The notes: a model not told the origin generated them from the sequence alone. Positions 5,388-33,824 are shown, counted from the first letter of the stretch. The stretch is 64,000 nt of DNA from Parcubacteria group bacterium (GCA_016180525.1 JACPBB010000001.1:75320-139319), one strand, 5' to 3'. Program-made: numbers and translations.

Positions 5388-5407
5388 TATAGCATTTATA
5401 TTTTATA

Positions 5408-5438
5408 CAAAAACCCCGCCAGAGTGGCGGGGTTAGTG
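5408..5438. terminator. Intrinsic terminator hairpin CCCCGCC-agagt-GGCGGGG, T-run on the minus strand
   Basis: seen directly; lies just 3' of the hypothetical gene 5433-5894. Confidence 0.6.
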
Positions 5439-5894: not shown

Positions 5895-5985
5895 TATAAT
5901 CCTCAATTTTCTAAGATCTACTAATAGATAGTATAGCATTTTATTTAGAAAACAAAAATTTTTAAAAAATGATATACTATCACAT

Positions 5986-7245: not shown

Positions 7246-8559
7246 TTACCGCGAAAGCCAGGCACTCTCTTGCCGCGCTAAAAACTTTGTATCCGCGAGA
7301 TTTTCAAGAATCCGCTCCACTACCCTCTCCATCCGCATTGACTGCGAACCCTTTACAAGCACAATGTCTCCAGAACGCAAAAAGGTTTTTAGAAATTCCC
7401 CTGCCTCAATTGAATTTTCAAAATGATGCGTGTCGGCTTTTTTCATCTTTTTCTTTAGAGCAGATTCATTGATAAGCTGTGCCCGAATACCAACGGTTAT
7501 TAAAACACCGCAAACATCAGGAATTCGAGCCCCAATTTTTTTATGTTCATCCGCGCTGTACTTTCCAAGCTCAAGCATATCTCCCAAAACGGCTATTTTT
7601 CTTCCTCCCTCTGCAGATTGCTCTTTTGTGGGAACCGTCAGGCTCTCTAGAGCATTGAGTGCCGCATGAAGCGCCGCGGGAGATGAGTTGTATGAATCAT
7701 CTATAATAGTTGAGCCGTTGATACCGTGTAACAGTCGCATCCGCCCGGCAGGAAATTGAAATTGCGCGAGTGCTTCAAGCGCGGAGACAATATTAACGCC
7801 CTTTCCAACGCCAACCGCGAGACTCGCGAGTACGCTTAAAAATATATGTGTTCCCAAAACTCCTTTCAAGTGAAGCGGGAGTTTGTTTTCTTTATATGAA
7901 ACTTTTCCAAACATTCCGACAGGATGTTCCTCTCTGTCATATTCTATTTCCGGATTTAAAATAGAAATATCGGCATTAAGAGTTTCTCCAAAAGTAAGCG
8001 TGTTATGCAAAGAAAATTGTTTAAGCGCTAAAACATCTCTGTCGTCAGCATTGAGTACCAGTAAACCTGCTGGTTTAAGCGCTCGCACGAGATGTGTTTT
8101 TTCTTCAATAAGAGCTTCGCGTGAGGGGAAAAATTCTATATGTACTGGTATTTCGGGAAACGCGGTCACCACGACGACGTCAGGTTTAAGCCATGAGGTA
8201 ATTTTTTGTATGTCACCCGGCCTGTCCGTCCCCACTTCAACGACCAGCATTTTTGGATAATGATTTTTTAAAAAAATAAGACTTAATCCTTCAAAAATAA
8301 TTTTAAGCCATCGTATTACGTTGCCCCACGCACTCTCACATCCTAAAACAGTAAGTGGTATGCCGATTTCGCTGTTAAAACTTTTATCGCCTTTCCACAC
8401 ATACATTTCTCTTGAAAGCACTGTCCATGTCGCATCTTTCGCTCCAGTTTTCCCAACACTTCCTGTTATTGCCACGATTTCAGGCTTATACTTATGCAAA
8501 ACAGCGCGCGCAAGCAGTGTAATAATAAGCACAATTATTTTTTTAAACAGTTGCTTCAT
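7246..8559 (-). CDS. murF: Mur ligase family protein, probable UDP-MurNAc-tripeptide--D-Ala-D-Ala ligase (MurF-like), N-terminal TM helix
   Basis: ITGSVGKTG P-loop of Mur ligases, central and C-terminal Mur domains; sits immediately after ftsI in the dcw cluster. Confidence 0.7.
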   Translation of the reverse strand: MKQLFKKIIVLIITLLARAVLHKYKPEIVAITGSVGKTGAKDATWTVLSREMYVWKGDKSFNSEIGIPLTVLGCESAWGNVIRWLKIIFEGLSLIFLKNHYPKMLVVEVGTDRPGDIQKITSWLKPDVVVVTAFPEIPVHIEFFPSREALIEEKTHLVRALKPAGLLVLNADDRDVLALKQFSLHNTLTFGETLNADISILNPEIEYDREEHPVGMFGKVSYKENKLPLHLKGVLGTHIFLSVLASLAVGVGKGVNIVSALEALAQFQFPAGRMRLLHGINGSTIIDDSYNSSPAALHAALNALESLTVPTKEQSAEGGRKIAVLGDMLELGKYSADEHKKIGARIPDVCGVLITVGIRAQLINESALKKKMKKADTHHFENSIEAGEFLKTFLRSGDIVLVKGSQSMRMERVVERILENLADTKFLARQESAWLSR

Positions 8560-8641
8560 CTTTTATAATTTTTAAATTTTGAATTTATTTAGAAGTTAAG
8601 AATTCCAGATCGCTAAATTATAGACATCAGATTTCCATAGT

Positions 8642-10345
8642 TTAGCGGTCAGGTGGCACATTGTAATAATGTACCAAAAAAGTAACCGTATCAATAAATG
8701 GAATTGTGAGCGTCTCGGAAGCATATCGTACCCCCTTCGGTTCTACAACATAGAGGAAAACAAGAAACTGCGGATCATATGCGGGAAAATATCCAAAAAA
8801 TGAATGAAAAAAACGATCATCATAATAACCGCCCTTCGAGCCTGCGATCTGCGCGGTTCCCGTCTTTGCCGCGATGCTGTAGTGGGGCATTTTTACCGTA
8901 CCTCCTAGGAGTGCTTCGTCAACAACCCGCACGAGCATACGGGTTATTTCTTCACTCGCTTCCGGTGAAATCGCTCGTTTAAACTCTTCATTTGACCGTC
9001 GTACTTTAGCAGTAAGTCCTTCTTCAAATTCAATTGCGTCAACCACGTGCGGGGTCACAAGCACTCCGCCATTTGCGAGCACTGAAAGCGCGCGCACCAT
9101 TGAAATAGGAGTAACCGCAAACCCTTGCCCGAATGAAGCGGTCGCGATTTCAACATTCCGGTTATTTCGTAAATTCTTTACGAGGTTTGTGGCTTCATTC
9201 GGCAAATCAATCCCCGTTTGCTCGCCAAATCCATACGCAAAAAAATATTCCGAAAACAATTCATTTCCGAGTTTTTTCGCCACATGCACAGCTCCGGTAT
9301 TTAAAGATTGATTTAATATTTCTTGTATAGGAACCCGTCCACGAGCCTTCCCGTCAAAATTTTCAATACGTGCGTTATCTATTTCAACAAACCCATCATC
9401 ATAATAGGTGTCAGTTGGTTTTATTACTCCCGCATCAAGCCCCGCTGCAAGCGTAAGCGGCTTTACCGTTGATCCCATTTCAAATACGCTTTCCACAACA
9501 GAATTTGAAAATATGGAATAATCAGTTTCGTCTCTAAAATTATTCGGGTCAAATGTAGGACGTGCCGCAAGCGCATAGAGCGCGCCTGTTTTTGGATTAA
9601 TGATAACCGCGCCACCAGATTTTGCGTTCCATTTTTTCACAATACCAGAAAGAATTCCTTCCAAAAATCCCTGCACCTCGGAATCTATCGTCAATACCAA
9701 ATCCCCGGCACCAGCATATCTGCTGTCATAAAATAAAGAATTTCTAATGTTGGCAAATGCTTGTGCAAAAAGATTTACCTGCTCTCCCTCTTTTCTTAAA
9801 AGTACGTCTTCATAATATCGTTCAAGTCCATACCGACCGGTAAGCTCATCCCCTTCATACCCTACGAACCCTAAGACGTGCGCGGCCAGTTCACCGCCCG
9901 GATATGAACGCCAGCGCTCTTTGTGAACAGAAACACCTGCAATATTAAGTTGCTGTATTTTTTTAGCGTCTGCTTCAGATATTCTCCAGGCAATTTCCTC
10001 GTACGGATCAAGAACTTTTCCTGCTTGAAGAAAAAAAGAGTCGTCGTCTATGTCCGGTACGATACTCTTTAATTTGGGAAGAACTTCGGAGACATTTTTT
10101 AAAATAGACGGATTAATAGCCACTGTGTAACCTGATTTAAGCGTTGCTCCAGAAAAAATTCCACCAGAAAAAAAAATACTCCCGCGGTCAAAAATGTGCG
10201 CTATCGGGGAAATATATTGTTCTGATGCTTTTTCCAAGTAATAATTACCCCGTATAATCTGCAGAAAAAAAAGCTTGCCCGCGAAAATGAGAGCAAACAA
10301 GGCTATTGGTATATAAAAGAATCGTATTCGTGATGTAGGAGACAT
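8642..10345 (-). CDS. ftsI: Penicillin-binding protein (class B transpeptidase), divisome FtsI/PBP3 by context
   Basis: N-terminal TM, STVKP (SxxK), SxN and KTGTA motifs; follows ftsL. Confidence 0.85.
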   Translation of the reverse strand: MSPTSRIRFFYIPIALFALIFAGKLFFLQIIRGNYYLEKASEQYISPIAHIFDRGSIFFSGGIFSGATLKSGYTVAINPSILKNVSEVLPKLKSIVPDIDDDSFFLQAGKVLDPYEEIAWRISEADAKKIQQLNIAGVSVHKERWRSYPGGELAAHVLGFVGYEGDELTGRYGLERYYEDVLLRKEGEQVNLFAQAFANIRNSLFYDSRYAGAGDLVLTIDSEVQGFLEGILSGIVKKWNAKSGGAVIINPKTGALYALAARPTFDPNNFRDETDYSIFSNSVVESVFEMGSTVKPLTLAAGLDAGVIKPTDTYYDDGFVEIDNARIENFDGKARGRVPIQEILNQSLNTGAVHVAKKLGNELFSEYFFAYGFGEQTGIDLPNEATNLVKNLRNNRNVEIATASFGQGFAVTPISMVRALSVLANGGVLVTPHVVDAIEFEEGLTAKVRRSNEEFKRAISPEASEEITRMLVRVVDEALLGGTVKMPHYSIAAKTGTAQIAGSKGGYYDDRFFHSFFGYFPAYDPQFLVFLYVVEPKGVRYASETLTIPFIDTVTFLVHYYNVPPDR

Positions 10346-10372
10346 GCCAAAAATTAAGGAGTGAAGCGACTA

Positions 10373-10442
10373 TAATTTTTGAGCACCCCCTCTTTTTGAG
10401 TTCCTTTTAAATTTATAAGAATCTAAAAAGAGGGGGTTAATA
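10373..10442. repeat. Intergenic palindromic element (CCCCCTCTTTTTGAG ... CTAAAAAGAGGGGG) with a 5' flank TTTGAGCACCC shared with the elements at 18550 and 32412
   Basis: seen directly; near-identical core at 30585-30634. Confidence 0.6.
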
Positions 10443-10470
10443 AAACATACTCGCTTCGTTCATTGTTTTA

Positions 10471-10782
10471 TTAAAACTCATTCTGTACCAGTCTCTGCCT
10501 AAAAGCAAATATTTCTTTCTTCGGTTCCACAAATCCAAGAGTGGCGGCCCTCTCATGATTTATGGCATTATTTAGCCCCGTGTATTCAGACTCCAAATCA
10601 CTGATATTTGAGTATAATGATTGCATATTATTTTGAAGTGCTCGTTGAGCGGAAATATTAAATGTCGCAAGCCCTACAAGCAAGACATATAAAAATACTA
10701 TTCCAAGAAATCCCATAAAAAGCATGATCGTCAGTTGGCGTTCTGCGGCATATGTGTATAGTTTGTGAATTTTAATATACAT
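10471..10782 (-). CDS. ftsL: Cell division protein FtsL-like (small bitopic membrane protein)
   Basis: 103 aa, single TM plus coiled-coil, located between rsmH and ftsI. Confidence 0.55.
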   Translation of the reverse strand: MYIKIHKLYTYAAERQLTIMLFMGFLGIVFLYVLLVGLATFNISAQRALQNNMQSLYSNISDLESEYTGLNNAINHERAATLGFVEPKKEIFAFRQRLVQNEF

Positions 10783-18654: not shown

Positions 18655-19125
18655 TTATTCAACACTCACAATCACATACGGCACTTCCCCATTTGGAGTT
18701 TTAACAAAAGCGCGATCACCTTTCTTTTTTCCAATAAGCGCAGCCCCTAAAGGAGAACGATTTGAAATCTTTCCTTGAGCCATATTTGACTCCTCAGAAC
18801 CAACAATGCGATATGTTTTTTTCATCTGGTCCCCTTCTTTTTCTACCGTTACCGTTGAGCCAATATTAATAACCCCACCCTTGTAATCAGAAACAATAAT
18901 TGCGGAGCGAAGAAGTGCCTCAATGACTGAGATACGGTCTTCAACTTCAGTTTGAAGCCTTCCTGCTTCCTGGTATTCAGCATTTTCAGACAAATCACCC
19001 AAAGAACGGGCATATTCTAAACTCTCCGCCACCTCTTTGCGTTTTTCTGTTTTAAGATACTCAAGCTCTTTTTTTAAGTCTTCAAGCTTCTCTTTGCTTA
19101 AATATGTTTTTTCTTCATTTGCCAT
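18655..19125 (-). CDS. greA: Transcription elongation factor GreA
   Basis: N-terminal coiled-coil with conserved acidic tip region, C-terminal FKBP-like domain, 156 aa. Confidence 0.9.
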   Translation of the reverse strand: MANEEKTYLSKEKLEDLKKELEYLKTEKRKEVAESLEYARSLGDLSENAEYQEAGRLQTEVEDRISVIEALLRSAIIVSDYKGGVINIGSTVTVEKEGDQMKKTYRIVGSEESNMAQGKISNRSPLGAALIGKKKGDRAFVKTPNGEVPYVIVSVE

Positions 19126-19257: not shown

Positions 19258-20952
19258 TTAGCGCATATATTGAGGAGTGTTTATAGACATCCACTCAAGC
19301 ATCTGTCGCATTACGTATGGAGCGCCAATAAGATTTTTGGGATTACCGCGCTCCATAACAATTGCAAACGCATAGCGAGGTTTTTCATACGGGAAAAATC
19401 CGATAACCCATGAATTTACAAATTTTTTAAGTGTTCCAACTTCAGCAGTTCCGGTCTTTGCGGCAACAGAAATTAGAGGAATATTTAGCGCGCTTGCGGT
19501 ACCGGAACGTACTGATTCTTGAAGTCCTTCTTGCACAACAGTAAAATATTCAGCCGGTATTTTAATACGACTATCTTTCCCTGCTGTTAATTTTATATAT
19601 TCATTTTCGGCGACAATGTGCGGAGTAAGCAACATTCCCTTATTGGCAATCGCCGCAATAGCTCGAACCGCCTGAATCGGTGTTACCTGAAAGCCATATT
19701 GGCCAATTGCCGTGTTATATGTGTCTCCGATTCTCCACTCATCGTTAAATACTGTTTCCTTCCACTCAGGAGATGGGATAGTGCCCGCTTCTTCTCCGTA
19801 TATGTCTATGCCGGTTTCTTGTCCAAATCCAAACAGACGCATATATTGCTCAATCCTGCCAATGCCGAGACCTTTCTGGTCTTCAAATCCACCGCCCACT
19901 TCATAAAAATAAACATTAGAAGAATGCGCAAGTGCAGAGCGAACATCAACCCATCCGTGCGCCTTCCAATCTTTAAACACAGACTCTTGATTTAGAAGAT
20001 ATGGATGTGGCACAGAAATAGAACCTGTGCTTAAGATTTTCTCAGTCTCGCCAATCACTTTCTCATTAAGGGCGGCGATCGCGATAAATGGCTTTACAAT
20101 TGAGCCGGGAGTATAGACACCGGAGACTACTCTGTTTAAAAACGGCTTGCGGCTGTCAGTAACAAACTCTTTTATTTTTTCCGCATTCTTTCCTTGTGTT
20201 AAAATATTTGATTTGTATTCCGGAAAACTGACAAGGGCGAGTATTTCTCCATTTTCCACATCCATGATAACTCCGGCACCGCCGACGAACTCAACATTCT
20301 CCGCGAGATTTTTAATAAAATTAAACAATGCCTCAGATACTGCGATATCGATTGAAAGAGTAATGCTCTCCCCGTCTTGTGGGGGTCGAGTTGCGCTTTC
20401 GGATTCTGTTTCCCCAATGGCATTCGTCTCTATGATTTTAACCCCATAAGAACCCGCGAGCGTCTCTCCGTAAAAACGCTCTACTCCGTCTTTACCTTCA
20501 ATTTCTTTTTGATAAAAATATCCGTCCGTATCTTTTGCCGGATAACTCACATACCCAAGAACATGCGCGAGGCCGCTTGTACTATTATATGCACGCAATG
20601 AAAATTCCCCCGGAGAATCATTGGGTACATTATCCGCGAGTTTTATGCCGTTTCTGTCAAAGATAATTCCGCGCTCACTCCAGAGAATAGTGTGTCGAAG
20701 CGTGTTGCTCAGAGAAGCATTTTTATAATAGTCGGCACGCAAAATTTGCAAATCCACGGCTTTAGAGCCAAACACAAGCGCGACGAGCAAGAAAAAGAGA
20801 CCCACGCCTAAAAACGGCGCCTTACTAAGTGGCCGTTCGATTCTCCCTTCAAATTGATGGCGGTCAAACTCCGGAGAATTATGAGAATCCAAAAAAATCT
20901 CATCCGGGTCAATCTCATGCCCATATTTTTTTTTATTTTTTCTAAAAATCAT
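19258..20952 (-). CDS. mrdA: Penicillin-binding protein 2 (elongasome class B transpeptidase)
   Basis: SIVKP (SxxK), SSN, KTGTAE motifs; last gene of the mreBCD-containing operon. Confidence 0.85.
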   Translation of the reverse strand: MIFRKNKKKYGHEIDPDEIFLDSHNSPEFDRHQFEGRIERPLSKAPFLGVGLFFLLVALVFGSKAVDLQILRADYYKNASLSNTLRHTILWSERGIIFDRNGIKLADNVPNDSPGEFSLRAYNSTSGLAHVLGYVSYPAKDTDGYFYQKEIEGKDGVERFYGETLAGSYGVKIIETNAIGETESESATRPPQDGESITLSIDIAVSEALFNFIKNLAENVEFVGGAGVIMDVENGEILALVSFPEYKSNILTQGKNAEKIKEFVTDSRKPFLNRVVSGVYTPGSIVKPFIAIAALNEKVIGETEKILSTGSISVPHPYLLNQESVFKDWKAHGWVDVRSALAHSSNVYFYEVGGGFEDQKGLGIGRIEQYMRLFGFGQETGIDIYGEEAGTIPSPEWKETVFNDEWRIGDTYNTAIGQYGFQVTPIQAVRAIAAIANKGMLLTPHIVAENEYIKLTAGKDSRIKIPAEYFTVVQEGLQESVRSGTASALNIPLISVAAKTGTAEVGTLKKFVNSWVIGFFPYEKPRYAFAIVMERGNPKNLIGAPYVMRQMLEWMSINTPQYMR

Positions 20953-20956
20953 ACGC

Positions 20957-23900
20957 TTATTTGTTCTTTTTTAAAATCCTTACTACCCCCTCATTCGCAT
21001 CCACCTCCACGAGGTCGCCGTCTCTAAGAATTTTAGTGGCAACCCTGGTCCCTATGATACACGGGGTATCTAGTTCACGAGCAGAAATCGCCGCGTGAGA
21101 AAGCATTCCTCCAACATCGGTCACAATAGCCCCCGCCTTTTTTAGGCCGTCCATGAAGTCAGGATCTGTGGTTGCAGAAACAAGAATATCTCCTCTTTGC
21201 ATTTTGTCTATAGCGTTCTTTAGGACTTGAGGGTTGCTAAAGTCCCTACTAATAATTCTCACAATCCCTCTAATTTTTCTTCCAAGACCGTGCGCAATGG
21301 TTCCTTTTAAAATTCCTTCTTCTTTTTTTGTGTCGGGTGCAAATGTATCCCAGAGTTTAAGAGCCACCTCACCCGTATAGAGAAAGCGCCTACAATCTTT
21401 ATCAACATAAAATGCGTATGCTTTTTTTCGCTCTTCAATCTCAAATTCTGTTACCTTTTTATTCTCAAAAAGACAAAGCACTTCACTCTCTGTATACCAG
21501 CTGAACATTTCAGTTGAAATCTTAAACTGCTTACTTAATTTTTTAATAAGAGTCATGAGCCATCCATTGGAGTCTATAAAAGGCATATTGAGTCTTTCAC
21601 GAATTTCATTTTTGTAGTTTTCAATAAGTTTTACATTTTTTTTCGCTTGAGAATTTTTGCTAATTGATGCCCACATGCCGTCAGAATAATGAATGTCAAA
21701 ATATCTATATTCTCTGCAAATATCGGCTAGTTTTTTAAACATATATATGGCATCCTCTTTTGAAAAAATTTTCTTTCCCTGATAAACAGAGAGCTCTTGC
21801 TCCATGTCGTCAACTGTCTTTTTAATTGAATTGGTGCTTTTTTGTAGAGCTTTTGCGGTAAACGAGGAACCAATTTTATTAAGTTTTGCAACTGAATCTT
21901 TGTGCGCAAAAACACGAAGGATATAATTCTTCCATAAAACTAAAACCTCCCAGTTGCTATAATAAGACAATATAAGATCTTCAAATAAAAAAATTGACCC
22001 TTGCGATTCAAAAGAAAAAATAAAATCTTTCTTATCAAAGGCTGGGGCTTGCGAATCTTGTCTTTTTAAAACCCTCACCACCCCCTCATTCGCATCCACT
22101 TCCACAAGGTCGCCATCTTTTAAAACTTGCGTGGCGATTTTTGTGCCGATAACGCAGGGTTTTTTAAGTTCGCGTGATACAATGGCGGCGTGGGAAGTAA
22201 TACCACCTTCATCGGTAACAAAAGCAATTGCTTTTTTGAGAGCTGGCATAAATTCAGGAGTTGTCATTGCCGTTACCAAAACTTCTCCGTCGCGAACCGC
22301 CCCTATCTTACTTTTTGATATGATAACTCTCACTTTCCCCTTCGCATATCCTGCATACGCAGTAACGCCTTTTATAATATTAGTATCTTTGTTTTCAGCT
22401 CCTTTAATGCTGAGGCCTTCAAGCACTGCGTATTGAGCAACAGACATAAACTGAATCCCCCTAGCACCATAGACAAACCCTTTCATGCGTTTTTGTATTT
22501 CTTTTTCATTGGGCACTATCCCTTTTATTAAAAAATTATATGCTTCACCAAGAGAAATAAATTTGGCGTACGCTTCCTTTTTAAACATTCTTTTGCTAAT
22601 TTCTTGAGCAAGTTGTCTGGCAACCCTGTCCCCCTCAGGGCCAACTTTTTCAGTTTCAGCACGTGTTTTTGCCGCAACAGAAATCTCTTTTTCCCACCTC
22701 TTGTTTTCTGAATGATTTTCCATTTGAATCGGAAACCAGAAGTTTATTACAAACGTGGGCTCTAATTTTGTATGAGCATCAATAAAGTTTTTGAGCAATT
22801 TTGCTAATTCTTTATCAGAAAGACGAGATAATATACTTTTATCAACGGTATCAACTGTTCCCAGAAAGTTTTTATAGTGTTTAAATAATTCTTTTGAGTA
22901 TTTGCTTATAAAATTTTGATTTTTATCTAGTTCTGCTAGAATAAACGCCCTCATTTTTTCAATGTGCTCAATCGGCGCTCTATAAATATCAAGATGGTCT
23001 ACGTAAATATCAAACAACACTTCTGCGTAAGACCAATTAAATTGCTTGTTAAATTCTTTAGTAAATCCTTCATGCAGCATTTCTACTATAAATAACGGCC
23101 AATCGCGGGTAATGCTTTTTTCAAATATTAATTTACTAACCTTCTCTATTTTTACATTTGAAAGAGTGGTAATCGGCCGACTTTGAACAATATAAAATTT
23201 CCCTTTCTCATACGCCCACTCAATGTCAACCGGGAATTCGTAATGCTTTTCAATCTTAAGAACTAATTCGGAGAGTTGTAAAATTTGTTCATCAGTCAAA
23301 ACTTGCTTCTCGCCTTTTTCTTTTGGCACCGCAACCCACTCATTCCCTATTTCACCATTCGCGCGAATTAGAGATTTGTTTTGTGTAACAATGTTTTTAT
23401 CAACAATTCGTCTCGGCTCTTTTTCTACCACATACGAGTCAGGCGTAATTTGACCCGACACAATTGCCTCGCCAAGCCCGAGCGCCGCTTCAATAATGAG
23501 CTGATTATAGTCTTGCGTTACTGGATGAACTGAAAACGCAATACCCGACACCTCGCTCTCCACCATTTTCTGTACTACAACCGCGACAGAAATTTTCTGC
23601 GTATGAAGTCCTTTTTCAAAGCGGTAGAAAATAGCGCGCGGCGTAAAAAGTGAGGCCCAGCATTTCTGCACATTTTCAAGTAGTTTTTCTTCCGTGGTGT
23701 TTAAAAAACTGTCTAACTGCCCCGCCCATGCGGCAGTCGCGGAGTCCTCTGCTGTGGCAGATGAACGCACTGCAACATATTTTGCGCCAAGTTTTTTAAA
23801 AGATTTCCCAATATCTTTCGCAATATCTTTTGGCATCTTTGCTTCAAGAATAAGTGCCTGAATTTTCTCCGAAGCGTTTTCAACCGTATGCATTTGTTCG

Positions 23901-24100
23901 TGTTTTACCGTGTGAAGAATGGAATCAATCTCAATATTCAAGTCAGTCTCCGTAAGAAATTGTTCAAATGCATCAGCAAGTACGACAAATCCTGGGGGCA
24001 CTGGAATCCCCGCCCGTGTCATCTCTCCTAAAGAAGCCCCCTTGCCTCCGGCGGCAGAAACATCTGATTTTGATATATCTTTGAAAAATTTTAAAAACAT
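20957..24100 (-). CDS. PEP synthase / pyruvate-phosphate dikinase-like protein: N-terminal ATP-grasp (PPDK_N-like) domain plus two PEP-utilising phosphohistidine mobile domains; no C-terminal PEP/pyruvate TIM barrel
   Basis: N-term MFLKFF...GGKGASLGEM...PVPPGFVV; mobile-domain motifs GGITSHAAIVSRELKKPCVIG (middle) and GGMLSHAAISARELDTPCIIG (C-term). Confidence 0.75.
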   Translation of the reverse strand: MFLKFFKDISKSDVSAAGGKGASLGEMTRAGIPVPPGFVVLADAFEQFLTETDLNIEIDSILHTVKHEQMHTVENASEKIQALILEAKMPKDIAKDIGKSFKKLGAKYVAVRSSATAEDSATAAWAGQLDSFLNTTEEKLLENVQKCWASLFTPRAIFYRFEKGLHTQKISVAVVVQKMVESEVSGIAFSVHPVTQDYNQLIIEAALGLGEAIVSGQITPDSYVVEKEPRRIVDKNIVTQNKSLIRANGEIGNEWVAVPKEKGEKQVLTDEQILQLSELVLKIEKHYEFPVDIEWAYEKGKFYIVQSRPITTLSNVKIEKVSKLIFEKSITRDWPLFIVEMLHEGFTKEFNKQFNWSYAEVLFDIYVDHLDIYRAPIEHIEKMRAFILAELDKNQNFISKYSKELFKHYKNFLGTVDTVDKSILSRLSDKELAKLLKNFIDAHTKLEPTFVINFWFPIQMENHSENKRWEKEISVAAKTRAETEKVGPEGDRVARQLAQEISKRMFKKEAYAKFISLGEAYNFLIKGIVPNEKEIQKRMKGFVYGARGIQFMSVAQYAVLEGLSIKGAENKDTNIIKGVTAYAGYAKGKVRVIISKSKIGAVRDGEVLVTAMTTPEFMPALKKAIAFVTDEGGITSHAAIVSRELKKPCVIGTKIATQVLKDGDLVEVDANEGVVRVLKRQDSQAPAFDKKDFIFSFESQGSIFLFEDLILSYYSNWEVLVLWKNYILRVFAHKDSVAKLNKIGSSFTAKALQKSTNSIKKTVDDMEQELSVYQGKKIFSKEDAIYMFKKLADICREYRYFDIHYSDGMWASISKNSQAKKNVKLIENYKNEIRERLNMPFIDSNGWLMTLIKKLSKQFKISTEMFSWYTESEVLCLFENKKVTEFEIEERKKAYAFYVDKDCRRFLYTGEVALKLWDTFAPDTKKEEGILKGTIAHGLGRKIRGIVRIISRDFSNPQVLKNAIDKMQRGDILVSATTDPDFMDGLKKAGAIVTDVGGMLSHAAISARELDTPCIIGTRVATKILRDGDLVEVDANEGVVRILKKNK

Positions 24101-24103
24101 AAT

Positions 24104-24367
24104 TTATGAAAATCGTGTTTTGCTTTTTAAAAATTCCGCGGAGTAAAAAAGAATAAGCGCGCCGAGCGTGAAAAAAAATGTAAAGCCCCATATATCTATT
24201 CCCGATACGTTGTAGAGCAAGTCATAAAAAATCGCCCATGCGATAATTTCGTAAAAATTTTTCTGAACAAGCACCAAAGCAATTCCAATAATAATCGTAG
24301 CCCACCACGGAAGAAACAGTATTGAAACCAATAGTATGCTATTTAACCCAAGGCGCTTTAAGGACAT
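24104..24367 (-). CDS. Small polytopic membrane protein, MreD-like by operon position
   Basis: 87 aa, hydrophobic, directly follows mreC. Confidence 0.4.
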   Translation of the reverse strand: MSLKRLGLNSILLVSILFLPWWATIIIGIALVLVQKNFYEIIAWAIFYDLLYNVSGIDIWGFTFFFTLGALILFYSAEFLKSKTRFS

Positions 24368-24414
24368 AATTATTTTTGATTAACAATAGTAAATCTGAAA
24401 TTTGAAATCTGAAA

Positions 24415-25272
24415 TTATTCTTGTTCTTCTATTTTTAATATAAGGTCGTCAGTGACCAAAACAAATTGAGTAGTAAAAATATTAATAGGGGCTCGAAAGA
24501 AAACGGACTGGAATGAGCTCGTAGATTTTGACTCTATTTTAAGAACTGTGCCTAAGAGATAATTATGAATTGAAGGATACATAACAGCATCGCCCGCGGC
24601 TATCTCTATGTCCCGAGGAATTTTAATTTCAAATACTCCACCTCCCTGGCCATACGCGGTAGCGGAAATTTTTTTCTTTGAAATTACCGCGTGGGTTTCA
24701 GTATCAGGAGAAGAGAAGAGCCGTATTTTAGCGCTGTGCGCATAGACCGTATCCACAACCCCCAATAAAACATTACCAGAAATTACAAGAGAGCCTGTTA
24801 TAATATCGCGGTCTTTTCCAATATCAATATAAAAAATGTCATAGGGAGAACGATTTGGTTGGGAGAGAACGCGGCCCAAAATTCCTCGCGATACATCCTC
24901 TCTTCCAAGCAATCGTTTTAATTCTTCATTTTCTTGTATTACTGCTTCATATACAAGCGTCTGCGTTTTTGCGATACGAAGCGCGTTTTGCAGTTCAGTG
25001 TTTTCTTCAACAAGATTTTGTTTATCTTTAAAAAAAATACCAGCAGCAGAAAAACGTTCTGCAATAAAAACGCCAATGTTCCAAAAAATCCCCGATACAG
25101 AAACCGCACCCGCTTCAAGTGGCCGTACTACGAGAGATGCATACCACAAAATAAAAATAAGCACTGCGATTAGTGCTGTTCTTTTCACATATAATTTAGT
25201 TTTTTCTCTATTGCCTTGAAGCATAGTTTCACGAAATCTATTGTATCGGGGGTAACCCCTCATCACTATCAA
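24415..25272 (-). CDS. mreC: Rod shape-determining protein MreC
   Basis: N-terminal TM, coiled-coil (NTELQNALRIAKTQTLVYE...), C-terminal beta domain. Confidence 0.8.
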   Translation of the reverse strand: MIVMRGYPRYNRFRETMLQGNREKTKLYVKRTALIAVLIFILWYASLVVRPLEAGAVSVSGIFWNIGVFIAERFSAAGIFFKDKQNLVEENTELQNALRIAKTQTLVYEAVIQENEELKRLLGREDVSRGILGRVLSQPNRSPYDIFYIDIGKDRDIITGSLVISGNVLLGVVDTVYAHSAKIRLFSSPDTETHAVISKKKISATAYGQGGGVFEIKIPRDIEIAAGDAVMYPSIHNYLLGTVLKIESKSTSSFQSVFFRAPINIFTTQFVLVTDDLILKIEEQE

Positions 25273-26311
25273 TCAATACTTCTTGATGACCCTCTAAATT
25301 CTCAATAATAACTCCAGTACCACGCACAACGGCCGTCATCGGATCCGGAGCAATGTGAATAGGAATACGGACAGACTCTTCCAATAATTCAGAAAACCCA
25401 GAAATGGTAGCTCCTCCACCGACAAGAATAATTCCGCGTGCCATCACATCAGAGAGCACCTCGGGCGGCGTTGTTTCCAGCACTTCTTTTACTGCGTCAA
25501 TAAGAGTAAATATTGAACTTGAAATTGCTTCCCGAATATCGGTGTCTGTAATAATAACCTCCCTCGGTAGTCCTGTAACAAGATCCCGCCCCCGCACCGG
25601 AGCTTCAATCCGCTCACGCCCTTCGAGCACGGAACCAATCGCGATTTTAATACTCTCCGCGGTTCGCTCGCCAATCAAAATTTTAAATTCATTCCTGATA
25701 TAAGAAATAATATCCTCGTTAAAACGATCTCCGGCGATTCGGACATTTTTTGAACGGACAACGCCGCTTAAAGAAATGACGGCAATGTCAGTATTCCCGC
25801 CGCCGATATCAATAATCATACTCCCCACGGGCTCTTTTACAGGTAACTCTATACCGATAGCCGCGGCCATCGGCTCTTCTACTATATATACCTCGCGCGC
25901 GCCCGCATTTTTTGCCGCGTCACGAACCGCGCGGGTTTCAACATTTGTGATATTTGAAGGGACACCAACCACAACAGTTGGACGCGCAAGTTTTGGAGAA
26001 ATTTTATGTACTTTTCTTAAAAAGTAAGCGAGCATTTCTTCGGCAACTTCAAAGTTGGAAATAACTCCATCAACAAGCGGACGAACGGCAGAAATATGTG
26101 CCGGGGTTCTCCCAAGCATTTGTTTTGCTTCAGTGCCCACAGCTACGACTTGCCCTGTTTTTTGATTGACCGCAACGACGGAGGGTTCATTGATTATAAT
26201 TCCCATGTTGCGGACATACACGAGCGTATTGGTAGTGCCCAAATCAATACCGACACTATTTGAAAACAGCGTGTATAATTTATCTTTTGTTTGTTTTATT
26301 TTTTTTCGCAT
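25238..26311 (-). CDS. mreB: Rod shape-determining actin homologue MreB
   Basis: GIDLGTTNT...VVGVPS...DIGGGNTD actin-fold motifs. Confidence 0.9.
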   Translation of the reverse strand: MRKKIKQTKDKLYTLFSNSVGIDLGTTNTLVYVRNMGIIINEPSVVAVNQKTGQVVAVGTEAKQMLGRTPAHISAVRPLVDGVISNFEVAEEMLAYFLRKVHKISPKLARPTVVVGVPSNITNVETRAVRDAAKNAGAREVYIVEEPMAAAIGIELPVKEPVGSMIIDIGGGNTDIAVISLSGVVRSKNVRIAGDRFNEDIISYIRNEFKILIGERTAESIKIAIGSVLEGRERIEAPVRGRDLVTGLPREVIITDTDIREAISSSIFTLIDAVKEVLETTPPEVLSDVMARGIILVGGGATISGFSELLEESVRIPIHIAPDPMTAVVRGTGVIIENLEGHQEVLIDSDEGLPPIQ

Positions 26312-26318
26312 TATGTTG

Positions 26319-27566
26319 TTAATGGTCAGTTATATACTGCGCAACTTTATTTATTTTTACCTCTTTTACCTCTCCGCTTTTTCTGTCTTTAATCTCAACG
26401 GCTTCTTTCTTCACGAGAGCTTCGCTTATAATAATACTCGTAGGAATGCCCATAAGCTCTGCATCAGAAAATTTAATCCCCGCACCCGCCACTCTGTCAT
26501 CATAGAGGGTCTCTATGCCGTTCTCTATAAGTTCTTTATAGAGTGCTTCCGCCTTATTTGCAACGTCTGTGCTCTTGCCAGCAAGCGAGATAAGGTGCAC
26601 CTGAAACGGAGCAACCGACTTCGGCCACACGAGCCCCCTGTCATCCCCGAGAATCTCGGCAATAGCACCCATGACCCGCGACGGCCCCAGTCCGTAACAT
26701 CCCATAACAGTCGGCTGTGATTTTCCTTTCTCATCTTTGAACGAAAGGCCAAGTGCTTCTGAAAAACGAGTCCCGAGTTTAAAAATGTTTCCCACTTCAA
26801 TCGCCTTGTGTTCCGTAAGTGAGTCTTTGTGAAGCCCGAGGTCAGAGAGCACTGCATCCGTGTATACTTCTGCATTAATGCCAATTTCTTTTTCGCGCGA
26901 AACATACACCGTGTCCTCGCCCGCTTCCGAAAGAGCTTGAAACTCATGACTGTATTTTGAAAATGCTCCCCCGCTTGCAAAAGTTAAAACAGTTTGCTCT
27001 CCAATACCAACGCGTTTAAATATTTTTTTATACGCTTCTTGCACCCGTTTGTAAAACATATCCAAGTCTTTTTCATCTGTGTGAAACGAATACAAATCTT
27101 TCATCCTAAACTCTCTGCCTCGCAATATGCCGCTTTTGGCCCGTTCTTCATTTCTAAACTTTGTTTGAATCTGATACGCAGAAAACGGCAAGTCTTTATA
27201 TGACCCCACGTGCTGCGTAAGCGCGTGCACAATCTGCTCTTCTTGTGTCCAGCCAAGCCCGACTTCAGCCCCCTCTTTGAGCTGCGTCTTAAACCACACA
27301 TCCTGCTCCCACCGGTCTGATTTTTTCCAAAGCTCCGGATTCTGAAGAGCAGTCAAAAGCACCTCCTGCGCTCCGAGCGCATTCATTTCTTCACGAACAA
27401 TATTTTCTATCTTTGAAAGCACACGCAGACCAAGCGGCAAATACGCGTAAACTCCGGCCATTTCCTTATGAATAAACCCCGCGCGAATGAGTAAGCGCGC
27501 GTTTTTTGAAACCTCGCCTTTCGGCGCCTCCTTGCGGGTTTTTGTAAAAATTTCTGAGAATAACAT
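26319..27566 (-). CDS. proS: Prolyl-tRNA synthetase, short bacterial form without editing insertion
   Basis: class II aaRS motifs (FRNE, RGREF), C-terminal anticodon-binding domain, 415 aa. Confidence 0.85.
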   Translation of the reverse strand: MLFSEIFTKTRKEAPKGEVSKNARLLIRAGFIHKEMAGVYAYLPLGLRVLSKIENIVREEMNALGAQEVLLTALQNPELWKKSDRWEQDVWFKTQLKEGAEVGLGWTQEEQIVHALTQHVGSYKDLPFSAYQIQTKFRNEERAKSGILRGREFRMKDLYSFHTDEKDLDMFYKRVQEAYKKIFKRVGIGEQTVLTFASGGAFSKYSHEFQALSEAGEDTVYVSREKEIGINAEVYTDAVLSDLGLHKDSLTEHKAIEVGNIFKLGTRFSEALGLSFKDEKGKSQPTVMGCYGLGPSRVMGAIAEILGDDRGLVWPKSVAPFQVHLISLAGKSTDVANKAEALYKELIENGIETLYDDRVAGAGIKFSDAELMGIPTSIIISEALVKKEAVEIKDRKSGEVKEVKINKVAQYITDH

Positions 27567-27995: not shown

Positions 27996-29102
27996 TTAGG
28001 AGCCAATCAGCCGTGCGATATCATTGTATGTGACAAGCACCATAAGAAGAACAAGTATTGCAAACCCGGCCGCGTGAATTGTATTTACAATTTTGTAATT
28101 TACCGGAGAACCTTTTATTGCTTCAATTATAAGAAACAGCAAGCGCCCGCCGTCTAACGCCGGTATCGGAAGCAGATTCAAAACTCCCAAGTTAATTGAA
28201 ATAAACGCGACAAAGCTTAATAAATACGCAAACCCTAAATTTGTCGCGTCTCCCACCAAAGAAACAATGCCGACAGGCCCGGTAAGATTCGCAAGGTCGG
28301 CACTGCCTTTAAAAGCATCCGCAATAAGTCCTAAAAACGCAACAACTATCGCGCCGATAAGCGTTACGGTCATCTTCCCTCCCTCAAAAATTGCTTTAAA
28401 AAAAGGCAGCTGCACCAAGCCAATAGAATTCATTGCTATGCCAATGGCTGGCCTGTCACTGACAATACCTGAAACTGGCATGACAACAACACTCCCTTCT
28501 TTTTTTTCTTTCTCACGCTGGTATGTAAGTATGATTTCTTCTTTCTCGTGCCGTGCGATAAACTCTTGAGTTTCAAGCGCCGTCGGAAGAGAAAGTGTGT
28601 TGTTCTTTGCAGAAAGAGAGATAATAGTGTCTCCCGCCATAAGACCCGCGGCTTCCGCGGGAGAGTTCCGCTCTACTGCGGTAATAAGCAGCCGCTCGTC
28701 TTTTATCGTTGCCCCGCTTATATTTTCATCAACGGACATTGGCAGACCGGAAATAAATCCGACAGAAAATAAAATCCACGCGAGCAAAAAATTAAAGCCG
28801 ACTCCGGCAACAATCACTCCCGTCTGTACCCACTTTGGTTTATTTATAAAACTCCGAGCACTATCAGATCCATGCAATGATTCATCGTCTGGATTTTCTC
28901 CAAAAATTTTAACAAAACCCCCAAACGGAATCGCGTTCACTGTATATTCCGTCTCCCCTTTTTTAATGCCGAAAAGTTTGGGCGGAAACCCAAACCCAAA
29001 CTCATCAACTCGTATGCCGGACTTTTTCGCAACAATAAAATGCCCGAACTCGTGCACCAAAATGAGAACGGCAAGTACAATTAAAAAAATAATTATGTTC
29101 AT
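27996..29102 (-). CDS. rseP: RIP zinc metalloprotease RseP (site-2 protease, M50 family)
   Basis: HEFGH zinc motif in TM1, PDZ-like middle region, LDGG motif. Confidence 0.85.
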   Translation of the reverse strand: MNIIIFLIVLAVLILVHEFGHFIVAKKSGIRVDEFGFGFPPKLFGIKKGETEYTVNAIPFGGFVKIFGENPDDESLHGSDSARSFINKPKWVQTGVIVAGVGFNFLLAWILFSVGFISGLPMSVDENISGATIKDERLLITAVERNSPAEAAGLMAGDTIISLSAKNNTLSLPTALETQEFIARHEKEEIILTYQREKEKKEGSVVVMPVSGIVSDRPAIGIAMNSIGLVQLPFFKAIFEGGKMTVTLIGAIVVAFLGLIADAFKGSADLANLTGPVGIVSLVGDATNLGFAYLLSFVAFISINLGVLNLLPIPALDGGRLLFLIIEAIKGSPVNYKIVNTIHAAGFAILVLLMVLVTYNDIARLIGS

Positions 29103-29130: not shown

Positions 29131-29694
29131 CTAGGCAGAAATTTCTTTTTCTTTTTTCGCCACCATTTCGTTAAAGAGTTTATTCGCGTCATCAATCATT
29201 TTTTGCATTTCGTCTTTAAATCGAAATTTATCGTCTTCCGGAATTTCTCCATCCCGTTCTTTTTTCTGAATATCCTCCCACACGACATCACGCGCCTTGC
29301 GAGTGCGCACCCGCGCTTCTTCATGTTTTGTTTTCACAATTTTTAAAAGCGTTTCCCGTGTTTCAGAGGTAAGCTCCGGAAAAATGACCCGCACTCCGTC
29401 GCCAGATGTCGTCGTTGAAATGCCGAGCCCGGCGTTTATAATCGCCGTTTCAATCGGTTTAATCTGATTTTTATCCCACGGCGCGACGAGAATTGTCTTC
29501 GCATCAGAAACAGTCACGCTCGCCACATGATTTATGGGAACCTGTGAGCCGTATGAATCAACTTTTATACTGTCTAAAATAGAAGGTGTCGCCCGCCCCG
29601 TGCGAATATGTGAGAGTTCTTTTCCGAACCATTCTTTTATTTCTTCAAGTTCTTTTTTAAGCGATGAAAAATTGTACGTCATGTATTGAGGCAA
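29131..29694 (-). CDS. frr: Ribosome recycling factor
   Basis: 187 aa, conserved RRF arm and head domains (GRATPSILD...). Confidence 0.9.
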   Translation of the reverse strand: MPQYMTYNFSSLKKELEEIKEWFGKELSHIRTGRATPSILDSIKVDSYGSQVPINHVASVTVSDAKTILVAPWDKNQIKPIETAIINAGLGISTTTSGDGVRVIFPELTSETRETLLKIVKTKHEEARVRTRKARDVVWEDIQKKERDGEIPEDDKFRFKDEMQKMIDDANKLFNEMVAKKEKEISA

Positions 29695-30634: not shown

Positions 30635-31324
30635 TCAAAGCGTAAGCGCCAAATGTTCAAAAATAAGTTTGATTGACGGTGAGTTAATCATGAGATCAGC
30701 TCGGGCACGCGCCATTTTTTTTAATTGAGCAATAGTTTGAATAGTGGCATTTCCAGCATTAAAATGCTCGGCAATATTTTTTTCAAGAGCGTTTAAAAAC
30801 AGAGTCGCCTGTTCTTTATTTTTCTCTTCAACTAAATCAGAAATAATTTTAAGACGCTTTTCGGGAGAAGATGTTAAAAACTGCTTTGCCTTAGTTACAG
30901 TATCAGTGGTATTTTTAGAAACATTGGTTTGTTTTACAATAACCACACGAGAGAGAAGCGTCGGAAATAACCTGGCTGTGGTCGGCGTGATAATAAAAAA
31001 ATGGGTTCCCTCTGTCGGCTCTTCAAATATTTTCAAAAGCGTGTTTTGGGCTTCTTCCGTAATCGTAAAAAACGAAATAATAAAAATTTTCTTTCCGCCA
31101 TCAATGCCTTTCCGCGCCTGCATTTCTTTAAGGGGCCTCGCGTCATCAATGCCAAATGTTTCAAAATCACGATGCCAAAAATCAGGATTTCCCCGCACAG
31201 AAACCTCGTGTTCTGTTTCTAAAAAAGAAAAAAGTTCCGGAATTATTTTTTCCTTACTCCCTTCAAGTATATATGCGTGATGCAAATTTTTAGAATATAG
31301 AGTATTGAGAGTAGAATGTAGCAT
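30635..31324 (-). CDS. holB: DNA polymerase III delta' subunit-like (clamp-loader AAA+ fold, no P-loop)
   Basis: HAYIL..., EEPT..T.FII, TLLSRV (SRC-like) motifs, 229 aa. Confidence 0.55.
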   Translation of the reverse strand: MLHSTLNTLYSKNLHHAYILEGSKEKIIPELFSFLETEHEVSVRGNPDFWHRDFETFGIDDARPLKEMQARKGIDGGKKIFIISFFTITEEAQNTLLKIFEEPTEGTHFFIITPTTARLFPTLLSRVVIVKQTNVSKNTTDTVTKAKQFLTSSPEKRLKIISDLVEEKNKEQATLFLNALEKNIAEHFNAGNATIQTIAQLKKMARARADLMINSPSIKLIFEHLALTL

Positions 31325-31368: not shown

Positions 31369-32382
31369 TTATCGTTTCGCAATAATGCTCTTTTTGTATA
31401 CATCTAAATGCTCAAGCGCGATGCCGGTGCCCTTCGCGACGCAGTAGAGGGCATCATCCGCAAGAATGGCTTTCACGCCTGTTCTGCGAAATACGAGTTC
31501 CGGAAAATTACGCAACTGCGATGTTCCTCCGGTCATGATAATTCCCTGGTCAATAATGTCCGCAGAGAGTTCCGGAGGAGTTTCTTGTAACACATCTTTT
31601 ATCGCTTTTACCATTTCACGCAGCTCAGGACTAATCGCTTTTACGATTTCATTTGTTCCAATTTCAGCGGTGCGCGGAAGCCCCGCAATAAAATCACGGC
31701 CCTTTATGGTAATTTTCAACTCTTCTTCAACGGGCACTGCTGAGCCAATTTTTATTTTCACGTCTTCCGCGGTTTTGTCGCCAATCGCCAGATTAAATGT
31801 TTTTTTGATATAGTCGGCTATCGCGGTATCAATTCTGTTCCCCGCACATTTTACCGACTTTGAGGCAACAATGCCGCCAAGAGAAATAACGGCAACATCC
31901 GTCGTGCCTCCGCCAATATCAACAATCATATGCCCATGCGCCGCGTGAATGGGAACCCCCGCGCCGATTGCCGCGAGTATCGGCTCTTTGACCACATATG
32001 CGTTTTTCGCACCCGCTTTGATTGCGGCCTCAATAACCGCTCTTCGTTCGGTAGATGAAACGCCGGCCGGCACTGAAATAAGCACATCGGGTTTAAAAAT
32101 ATTCCATTTACCGAGCGCTTTGTTTATGTAATACCGAAGCATCGCTTCCGTTACCCGATAATCGGCAATGACTCCATCTTTCATCGGGCGATATGCGATA
32201 ATCGTGTCGGGGGTTTTCCCAATCATGTCTTTTGCCTCAAGTCCCACAGCCAAAATTCTGTTGTCCTCAAGCGAAACCGCGACAACAGAGGGCTCGTTTA
32301 ACACAACGGCTTTTCCCGGCACGTAGACAAGTGTGTTTGCGGTACCGAGATCAATTCCTAATTTTTTTGAAAAAAAAGACAT
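31369..32382 (-). CDS. Second MreB/Mbl-family actin homologue
   Basis: GIDLGTANT...DIGGGTTD...; 337 aa. Confidence 0.85.
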   Translation of the reverse strand: MSFFSKKLGIDLGTANTLVYVPGKAVVLNEPSVVAVSLEDNRILAVGLEAKDMIGKTPDTIIAYRPMKDGVIADYRVTEAMLRYYINKALGKWNIFKPDVLISVPAGVSSTERRAVIEAAIKAGAKNAYVVKEPILAAIGAGVPIHAAHGHMIVDIGGGTTDVAVISLGGIVASKSVKCAGNRIDTAIADYIKKTFNLAIGDKTAEDVKIKIGSAVPVEEELKITIKGRDFIAGLPRTAEIGTNEIVKAISPELREMVKAIKDVLQETPPELSADIIDQGIIMTGGTSQLRNFPELVFRRTGVKAILADDALYCVAKGTGIALEHLDVYKKSIIAKR

Positions 32383-32528: not shown

Positions 32529-33824
32529 CTATGGGCCAATTCTCTTTATATCCACCCCTACTCCTCGCAATCGCTCTTCTATCTTCTCATACCCCCTATC
32601 AATATTGTATACATTATGTATAACTGAGTCCCCTTTGGCAACAATTGCAGCAATTACAAACGCAAGACCCGCGCGCAGGTCAGGACTTTCCATTTCCCGC
32701 CCTTTGAGCGCCTTGGGACCTCTGACAATAACCCGATGCGGGTCGAGCGCTTTAATATCGGCACCCATGCGCACCAATTCTTCCACGTATGAAAGCCTGC
32801 CCTCAAAAATAGTTTCAAACACGAGCGACTGTCCGCTTGTTTGCGTTAAAAATACCGTCATTGGCGCTTGTAAGTCAGTGGGAAAGCCCGGATACTCACG
32901 AGTCTCAATATCTACTGATGTAAGAGACGAGGGGTGGGCATTTTTGGAAAGCATAATAGAATTTTTCCCAACGTCTACCGCAACACCAACTTGTCGCAGT
33001 ATTTCTGTAAGCGCCTCAACATGCTTGGGATTACAGTTTTTAATTTCAAAATTAACTCCTGCAAGGGCGCCTAAAATTAAAAAACTTCCTGTTTCAATCC
33101 GATCTGAAGGAGTATGAAACACGTCTCTTACGCCAGAGAGCAACCCACCTCCCTCAATATAAATATTTGCATCACCTGCGCCTCGTATTCGTGCCCCGCA
33201 CGAATTAAGAAAGTCCGCAAGAATTCCAATTTCCGGCTCTCGTGCGGCATTTTTTATAATTGTTTCTCCTTTTGCAAGCGTTGCCGCCATTATTAAAGTT
33301 TCTGTTGCGGTAACACTTGGTTTTTTAAAAAAAATAGAGGTGCCCGAAAGTCTCCCGTCGGGGACAAAGAGCGTGTAACGGTCACTCTCACGAGTAACGC
33401 GAGCGCCCATGGCCTCAAACCCTGAAAGAAAAAGATCAATCGGCCGTTCGCCAATAACACAGCCCCCCGGATGCGGAAACGATACTTTTCCAAAGCGTGA
33501 AAGTATGGGACCCGTGAGCACAATTGACGCGCGCATTTTCTGCGCCAAATCAACGGGCAAATCAGTGGCAAGTGTTCCCGGTACGGAAAGAGCATACTCC
33601 CCCTCTTTCTTGTTTGAAACAACAACACCGAGAGCAGAGAGAATATCATTCATCCGTTTTACGTCTTCAATGTCCGGAACATTATTAAGAGTAATACCAT
33701 CTTCAAATAAAATAGATGACGCAAGCGCCTTTAATGCGGCGTTTTTTGCTCCCTTTACGGCAATACTTCCAGAGAGCGCTTGTGCTCCGCCGAGACCTTT
33801 AATGAGAAAACGTTCTCTAGCCAT
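32529..33824 (-). CDS. murA: UDP-N-acetylglucosamine 1-carboxyvinyltransferase
   Basis: 431 aa; K/R-rich N-terminus, active-site Cys region (HPGGCVIG), EPSP-synthase-like fold motifs. Confidence 0.9.
   Translation of the reverse strand: MARERFLIKGLGGAQALSGSIAVKGAKNAALKALASSILFEDGITLNNVPDIEDVKRMNDILSALGVVVSNKKEGEYALSVPGTLATDLPVDLAQKMRASIVLTGPILSRFGKVSFPHPGGCVIGERPIDLFLSGFEAMGARVTRESDRYTLFVPDGRLSGTSIFFKKPSVTATETLIMAATLAKGETIIKNAAREPEIGILADFLNSCGARIRGAGDANIYIEGGGLLSGVRDVFHTPSDRIETGSFLILGALAGVNFEIKNCNPKHVEALTEILRQVGVAVDVGKNSIMLSKNAHPSSLTSVDIETREYPGFPTDLQAPMTVFLTQTSGQSLVFETIFEGRLSYVEELVRMGADIKALDPHRVIVRGPKALKGREMESPDLRAGLAFVIAAIVAKGDSVIHNVYNIDRGYEKIEERLRGVGVDIKRIGP

Follow-up and report, generated by a model that had tools for sequence, protein, structure and literature searches.

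What is a protein that resembles part of a phosphoenolpyruvate (PEP) synthase doing in the cell-elongation operon of an ultra-small bacterium? The question is raised by a 64-kb stretch of DNA from a Parcubacteria group bacterium (GCA_016180525.1, JACPBB010000001.1:75320-139319), hereafter the window, in which the mre/mrdA operon region occupies positions 19258-26311 of the minus strand. Between a small open reading frame (ORF) in the slot of mreD and the gene of the transpeptidase PBP2 lies a gene whose product of 1047 amino acids carries an ATP-grasp domain and two phosphohistidine domains. A first-pass annotation of the sequence had taken it for a phosphotransferase with a possible link to the cell wall. 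On the evidence assembled here, the protein is probably a fused two-module member of the superfamily of small-molecule dikinases typified by rifampin phosphotransferase (RPH), and neither a PEP synthase nor a dedicated component of the elongasome.

Enzymes that combine an ATP-grasp domain with a swivelling phosphohistidine domain are textbook cases of large domain motion. To our knowledge, in all characterised ones a single ATP site goes with a single acceptor site. If our interpretation is correct, one ATP site that serves between two and six acceptor modules, whether fused or split, would extend this one-to-one paradigm. Furthermore, the metabolism of bacteria of the candidate phyla radiation (CPR) is largely inferred from absences, and the family described here would point to unexplored phosphorylation reactions in them.

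Domain content

Pfam recognises both parts that the first-pass annotation had named: an ATP-grasp domain of the PPDK_N family (residues 16-323, E 2e-103) and two copies of the PEP-utilizers domain (E 1e-48), which is the swivelling phosphohistidine domain. These two parts are shared with PEP synthase. The third part is missing, as had been claimed: the PEP/pyruvate-binding TIM barrel PF02896 (PEP-utilizers_C) has no match in the protein at E<=0.01. This absence is real, because the same scan detects PF02896 at 1e-73 in a canonical PEP synthase (L001). In the full-length AlphaFold2 model, the middle regions are mainly helical and form no (alpha/beta)8 barrel. The NCBIfam equivalogs of PEP synthase also remain under their cut-offs (TIGR01418, 548.6 vs 598; NF005057, 526.8 vs 739.75). 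With the barrel absent and the equivalogs below cut-off, the protein is not a conventional PEP synthase. L001 itself, the sole locus returned when genome contigs were scanned with the single protein, had been considered as a family member and was rejected as a canonical, barrel-containing PEP synthase.

The description of 'two complete His mobile domains' was correct but incomplete, as each of them comes with its own upstream domain of ~250 residues (domain boundaries in Table 1). His domain 1 carries the motif GGITSHAAIVSRE with His637 (codon 22190-22192), and His domain 2 the motif GGMLSHAAISARE with His1002 (codon 21095-21097); both histidines are invariant in 23 two-module relatives. The C-terminal ~160 residues of the two modules are 43% identical, and the profiles of middle domains A and B reveal a remote homology (hhalign 96%, E 5e-9). 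Since both the C-terminal stretches and the middle domains are related, the repeat unit is the whole module of middle and His domain.

The structural comparison leads to the same superfamily from another side. The individual domains of the full-length model are good (pLDDT 84). Its best whole-chain match in the PDB (Foldseek) is the rifampin phosphotransferase RPH-Lm (5hv1, E 8e-35), and the ATP domain superposes on that of RPH-Lm (5hv6) with a TM score of 0.90, a root-mean-square deviation of 2.4-2.7 A and 36-38% identity. HpeI (9goj) also matches the N domain structurally (E 5e-23). These top matches bear out the earlier view that the architecture resembles that of phosphotransferases which move phosphate from ATP via histidine to a substrate. 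At the level of single residues, K20, R112, S131 and E294 align with Lys22, Arg117, Thr136 and Glu297 of RPH, and K20 and R112 are invariant across the 23 relatives. The roles of the ATP-site residues of RPH were established by mutagenesis (PMC4844700). Thus the phosphate-positioning residues of the RPH type (K20, R112 and S131) are present, and the order N domain, middle domain, His domain, with a middle domain other than a TIM barrel and a conserved histidine, is found twice.

Middle domains

Middle domains A and B have no match in Pfam and no sequence match in the PDB. Modelled alone, domain B gives a confident AlphaFold2 structure (pLDDT 93.2), in which a helical bundle and a beta-hairpin come after a small alpha/beta element; in the PDB, this model has no Foldseek match below E=1. 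Domain A repeats this secondary-structure pattern within the model of the whole chain. Both middle domains retain an invariant Lys/Arg pair that shares one helix, and a further Arg; in B these are K148, R152 and R209, with which Arg residues of A align. By analogy with R666/K670 of RPH, these residues could plausibly form a phosphoryl-binding patch.

A word-indexed search with the profile of domain B came back empty owing to a limit of the index, and an exhaustive profile search of 1.84 billion proteins was used instead. It yielded 928 cluster representatives, the commonest form of which is a stand-alone protein of ~360 residues composed of domain B and a His domain.

Family architecture and distribution

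A search of 5.8 billion proteins returned thousands of matches to the dikinase protein. All of the best 120 of these have a single N domain, and behind it stand one His domain in 7 proteins, two in 35, three in 77 and four in 1. His domains are separated by spacers whose lengths cluster at 200-260 and 350-400 residues, and module types A and B are found at differing positions in different proteins. The query is itself a mosaic: complete one-module proteins share 60% identity with its residues 1-682, and a module from a different one-module protein shares 57% with its residues 683-1047.

Modules also occur as separate genes. In 33 of the 88 scanned loci, stand-alone genes for a middle and a His domain flank the N-domain gene. 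The most extreme split seen is in L080 (5059-15771), where a gene for the ATP-grasp domain alone precedes a row of six stand-alone module genes. By their source labels, the members come from many Parcubacteria/Patescibacteria lineages as well as from some DPANN archaea (P0011, P0089); the DPANN assignment consists of these source labels only, and the context of P0011 contains no decisive markers. Two kinds of tag carried by relatives were followed up and discarded. On re-scanning, PF02350 (UDP-GlcNAc 2-epimerase) was sub-threshold and overlapped the His domain, and PF01989 (AcnX) did not reappear at E<=0.1 in those of the proteins tagged with it that were re-scanned.

In the searchable literature, we found no description of a multi-swivel dikinase or of a dikinase architecture from CPR bacteria. 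The modular family of ultra-small bacteria is large and uncharacterised.

Comparison with characterised enzymes

Among characterised enzymes, RPH-Lm (PDB 5FBS/5HV1; Stogios et al. 2016, PMC4844700) is the nearest relative. In both proteins an N-terminal ATP-grasp domain with conserved ATP-site residues is followed by an intervening domain that is not a TIM barrel and then by a swivelling His domain. However, RPH possesses one RIF-binding domain of 430 residues with three subdomains and one His domain, whereas the window protein has two middle domains of ~250 residues, each with its own His domain. Against the model of RPH proper (NF041857), the window protein scores 407.3 for a cut-off of 999, and just the N and His stretches match.

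A second comparison is offered by HpeHI, CreHI and the phenylphosphate synthase PpsAB, whose acceptor and swivel parts form a subunit of their own that is charged by the ATP-grasp subunit (PMC12167813). The split form seen in 33 of 88 loci resembles them. These enzymes work with one ATP-grasp subunit per acceptor subunit of ~70 kDa, on phenolics, and their genes lie in catabolic clusters. In the window protein, by contrast, the parts are fused, there are two modules of ~360 residues per ATP-grasp domain, and no catabolic context was seen; relatives have up to six modules per ATP-grasp domain.

With PpsA and PPDK the protein would share the dikinase chemistry. It differs from them in the lack of the barrel, in the unreached equivalog cut-offs and in the position of the His domain, which does not directly follow the ATP-grasp domain. 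GWD, PigC, RedH and HapC belong to the same superfamily of ATP-grasp and swivel-His enzymes and phosphorylate acceptors other than pyruvate. The NCBIfam models of PigC and RedH match the N and His parts of the window protein, but these enzymes have other acceptor domains and a single His domain, and the scores are 370-385 vs 1300-1350. The window protein differs from every characterised member in having more than one module per ATP-grasp domain, a much smaller and unmatched domain of acceptor type, and cassette-like modules. The labels 'PEP synthase' and 'rifampicin phosphotransferase' that these genes now bear are therefore misleading as annotation.

Proposed mechanism

By homology with RPH, HpeHI and PpsAB, the reaction would begin with the binding of ATP to the N-terminal ATP-grasp domain. 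The beta-phosphoryl group would be transferred to His637 or His1002, with release of AMP and Pi. Each phosphohistidine domain would then swing back to its own upstream domain of ~250 residues, A or B, which would hold the acceptor molecule that takes the phosphoryl group. We infer that a single ATP-grasp domain supplies both modules with phosphate.

Since the homology of A and B is no more than remote, the two modules, with their shared ATP site, most likely serve two different acceptors, or two steps or sites. Furthermore, autonomous modules adjoin N-domain genes, which argues for a separate charging of each module, in cis or in trans, and so for parallel action of the modules rather than for an ordered relay. 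A broader proposal, to which we give a little less than even weight, is that the family constitutes an undescribed 'hub dikinase' of CPR bacteria, possibly also of DPANN archaea, in which one ATP-grasp domain charges, in cis or in trans, from one to at least six diverged, cassette-shuffled modules, each made of an acceptor domain of new fold and a swivelling His domain. If so, ultra-small symbionts could phosphorylate several small molecules (salvaged metabolites, toxins) combinatorially from a single ATP site.

Several points weigh against the assignment to a modular small-molecule dikinase outside the elongasome. The dikinase chemistry is attributed by homology, and the acceptor-binding role of the middle domains by position and analogy. 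No resemblance could be detected between the middle domain and the RIF-binding domain of RPH (Foldseek E 4, TM 0.21; no overlap of hidden Markov model matches). In the full-length model, the inter-domain arrangement is unreliable (predicted TM score 0.43). The genomic context, that of the window included, offers no hint of a substrate. On the side of the cell wall, the junctions of 3-4 nucleotides put the gene inside the mre/mrdA transcription unit, and in three other loci (L019, L031 and L065) a family member lies less than 8 kb from mreB, in the same murA-mreB...mrdA supercluster. A loose association with the mre region may thus exist in some Paceibacteria.

Position within the mre operon

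The gene order that had been reported for the minus strand, namely mreB, mreC, a small ORF called mreD-like, the 1047-residue protein and PBP2, stands: it is supported by the ORFs, by Pfam and NCBIfam and by two further assemblies (Table 1). The dikinase protein is 100% identical to a database entry (HYT93_00510) from a metagenome-assembled genome (MAG) labelled Parcubacteria group bacterium. The order mreC, 87-residue ORF, dikinase, PBP2, greA recurs in two independent Logan assemblies from other sequencing runs (L096, L097), and the arrangement is therefore not a mis-assembly. Translation of mreC probably begins with the ATG at 25224, for a product of 269 residues that matches the gene call in L096. 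The PBP2 gene has TIGR03423 (pbp2_mrdA) as its top model, with 406 bits for a cut-off of 455.

Table 1. Genes and protein domains discussed in the text; positions refer to the window unless another locus is named.
Feature	Position	Strand	Basis or remark
mreB	25238-26311	minus	Pfam MreB_Mbl, E 4e-134; NCBIfam above cut-off
mreC (ORF)	24415-25272	minus	Pfam MreC; NCBIfam agrees
87-residue hydrophobic ORF, mreD slot	24104-24367	minus	ORF; 3 nucleotides upstream of dikinase gene
1047-residue two-module dikinase-like gene	20957-24100	minus	ORF; Pfam PPDK_N and two PEP-utilizers
ATP-grasp nucleotide-binding domain (PPDK_N), residues 1-323	23132-24100	minus	Pfam, Foldseek
Middle domain A, residues 324-568	22397-23131	minus	Putative acceptor-binding domain, module 1
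Swivel phosphohistidine domain 1, residues 569-682	22055-22396	minus	PEP-utilizers match at 603-673
Middle domain B, residues 683-935	21296-22054	minus	Putative acceptor-binding domain, module 2
Swivel phosphohistidine domain 2, residues 936-1047 and stop	20957-21295	minus	Second PEP-utilizers stretch
PBP2 / mrdA-type transpeptidase	19258-20952	minus	Pfam Transpeptidase and PBP_dimer; 4 nucleotides downstream of dikinase gene
greA	18655-19125	minus	ORF
RHG-motif gene, L031	10430-11305		
RHG-motif gene, L034	14006-14899		
RHG-motif gene, L073	10682-11566		
RHG-motif gene, L019	9872-10710		

The junctions of 4-5 bp that had been given for the operon hold only roughly. They are tight around the dikinase gene, with 3 nucleotides after the 87-residue ORF (TAA-ATT-ATG) and 4 nucleotides before PBP2 (TAA-GCGT-ATG), whereas the others are wider (~13 nucleotides for mreB/mreC, 47 for mreC/87-residue ORF). 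The dikinase gene is almost certainly co-transcribed with mre/mrdA, which does not imply functional coupling. A scan for promoters and terminators revealed nothing decisive within the operon. Recent transfer was also sought by composition; the GC and GC3 values of the dikinase gene are similar to those of its neighbours and hence uninformative.

As for the 'mreD-like' gene, its position is that of mreD, but its family identity did not hold up, as the 87-residue ORF has no match in Pfam or NCBIfam, including any MreD model. It has no similarity to the 157-residue ORF that fills the same slot in L031. In close relatives it is conserved, with 46-61% identity to ORFs of 84-85 residues directly upstream of PBP2 (L091, L092). 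The ORF may be a truncated or replaced MreD.

Beyond the operon, the minus strand of the window holds proS (26319-27566), rseP (27996-29102), frr (29131-29694), holB (30635-31324) and a second mreB paralog (31369-32382) adjoining murA (32529-33824). The order murA-mreB-holB-frr-rseP-proS is also that of L031, a conserved supercluster with two mreB genes in these Parcubacteria.

Is the position of the dikinase gene fixed? Its place between mreD and mrdA had been taken as a hint of a cell-wall role, and synteny in relatives had been named beforehand as the refuting test. We examined the family loci L002-L009 (look-ups) and L010-L089 (metagenome scan), with the non-member L001 excluded. In none of 87 family loci does a dikinase gene lie between the mreD-slot ORF and PBP2; the homologues are not syntenic with mre/mrdA.

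The nearest relatives of the window PBP2 (L090-L093, 68-72% identity) complete the picture. L091 has the order proS, mreB, mreC, a 221-residue nucleotidyltransferase-like gene, an 84-residue ORF, PBP2, greA; L092 and L093 have proS, mreB, cyclodipeptide synthase, mreC, an 85-residue ORF, PBP2, greA. No dikinase gene is present in any of the three. In these informative relatives (68% identity), the small ORF stays directly upstream of PBP2. In L090, which has the closest PBP2 (72%), the contig ends 390 nucleotides upstream; an unrelated 99-residue ORF is found there, and no dikinase C-terminus.

The inserted genes of these relatives are a cyclodipeptide synthase (PF16715) between mreB and mreC in L092 (6035-6763) and L093 (4160-4888), and in L091 (6958-7623) a 221-residue ORF with weak matches to the nucleotidyltransferase fold, which lies between mreC and the small mreD-slot ORF. 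With the cyclodipeptide synthase, the nucleotidyltransferase-like gene and the dikinase, the mre operon of this clade looks like an insertion hot spot.

The family locus L031 is collinear with the window (murA, mreB1, holB, frr, rseP, proS, mreB2, mreC, mreD, PBP2, greA), and its dikinase gene and an RHG phosphatase-like gene sit between rseP and proS, two genes upstream of mreB; mreD and PBP2 are adjacent, 3 nucleotides apart. In L019 and L065, the family member lies near the mreB1 copy, in yet other slots. Under different null models, the proximity to mreB in these three loci has a chance probability between P = 0.01 and 0.7.

The position is not fixed, and therefore the cell-wall role drawn from it loses its basis. 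We conclude that the dikinase gene at this place is an insertion private to its lineage, in an operon that tolerates inserted genes in this clade. As the mre operon repeatedly gains unrelated insertions, operon position is a poor guide to function here. The cell-wall hypothesis can be set aside, and because the link to the elongasome is unsupported, the remaining interest lies in the architecture of the family.

Alternative explanations

Four other accounts of the protein were weighed. According to one, it would be a kinase linked to the cell wall, which phosphorylates a peptidoglycan or lipid-carrier substrate or an elongasome protein and is coupled to MreBCD-PBP2. The tight junctions from the mreD-slot ORF to mrdA, reproduced in the independent assemblies, speak for it, as do the three other supercluster loci with a family member close to mreB and a few loci with MurG or SLT genes within 5 kb. 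We nevertheless judge it very unlikely. No family locus shares the slot, and the gene is missing from the closest informative PBP2 relatives; L019, L031 and L065 each use a different slot, and the significance of their closeness to mreB depends on the null model; and the same operon of relatives has received unrelated genes. In addition, most family loci lie among unrelated housekeeping or mobile genes, and some members are labelled archaeal, while archaea lack peptidoglycan. Different in kind is the idea of an intramolecular phosphorelay or regulator, in which phosphate would pass from His637 to His1002, or one module would be non-catalytic, and the chain would end on a single acceptor or partner protein. 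PTS Enzyme I, of the phosphotransferase system, passes phosphate to HPr and has the swivel domain in common with the window protein, where two His domains stand in series; the RHG-motif genes directly downstream of the dikinase in L019, L031, L034 and L073 could reset a phosphohistidine. Yet every His domain is paired with its own middle domain, and autonomous modules of ~360 residues, in any order and numbering one to six, fit parallel acceptors better. The window, moreover, contains neither an HPr-like or receiver partner nor an RHG phosphatase. A relay is accordingly improbable in our estimation.

Two accounts remain. The protein could be an analogue of RPH that inactivates several xenobiotics or antibiotics, with each module binding and phosphorylating a different toxic small molecule, so that the episymbiont would resist compounds from its hosts or neighbours; this would be a physiological role compatible with the mechanism proposed above. 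RPH, its closest characterised relative, is a resistance enzyme, and the RPH superfamily comprises dikinases whose intervening domain diverges rapidly with the substrate (PMC4844700), which suits such a role. The shuffling of modules, their variable copy number and the recombinase, transposase and toxin neighbours are typical of accessory functions. On the other hand, the middle domains bear no similarity to the RIF-binding domain, the RPH equivalog score is far under its cut-off (407 vs 999) and no resistance-gene context was seen; we hold this role to be unlikely, if worth keeping in mind. Finally, a split PEP synthase or PPDK with its TIM barrel encoded elsewhere is hardly credible. The top-scoring NCBIfam models are indeed those of PEP synthase, but these scores, which are driven by the ATP-grasp and His domains, stay below the cut-off. 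No PF02896 gene was found beside the 88 loci or in the window, where the search covered the family parts only. The His domains follow ~250-residue domains unrelated to PEP synthase, and the domain order is that of RPH and not of PpsA.

Neighbours of the family genes

In the window, we looked for and did not find further stand-alone modules, a recombinase or an RHG phosphatase as partner. The models of anti-phage defence in PADLOC-DB 2.0 gave no match for the dikinase protein, a stand-alone module or the RHG neighbour, so that a known defence system is unsupported. Elsewhere, the neighbourhood is often that of mobile elements. Large serine recombinases are encoded within 5 kb of dikinase genes in L015, L020, L057, L059, L062, L067 and L073, and L002 also has one. 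In L094 (6057-7946 and 19047-19385), a MAG labelled Woesearchaeota, the four-module gene is flanked by genes for a DDE transposase, a Bro-N protein and a ParE toxin. These neighbours suggest that the family is often located in mobile or variable regions.

A gene of the histidine-phosphatase superfamily with an RHG motif recurs by dikinase genes in 4-5 loci. In four of them (Table 1), it encodes a protein of 291-298 residues and lies directly downstream of, or overlaps, the last dikinase gene. Of these copies, only that of L031 matches Pfam His_Phos_1 (E 7e-9); that of L034 lacks any Pfam match and has just a weak one to an NCBIfam acid phosphatase. The RHG protein is a possible partner, which would dephosphorylate the product or the phosphohistidine. 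In L019, the dikinase gene (7908-9953) and its RHG neighbour (9872-10710) are each split into two ORFs, possibly by pseudogenisation or by a sequencing frameshift.

Two further neighbourhoods may be mentioned. The dikinase cluster of L002 consists of a two-module gene and two stand-alone modules, with a phage-type integrase and a serine recombinase nearby; just upstream lie a cyclodipeptide synthase gene (5129-5818) and a truncated ORF resembling a class-II tRNA synthetase. In L037, a protein without Pfam match (5310-6527) adjoins the dikinase genes and has relatives in L030, L040, L043 and L070. Single-linkage clustering joins 11 loci through this protein, with direct BLAST matches in just the four others named (~100 C-terminal residues, 28-39% identity).

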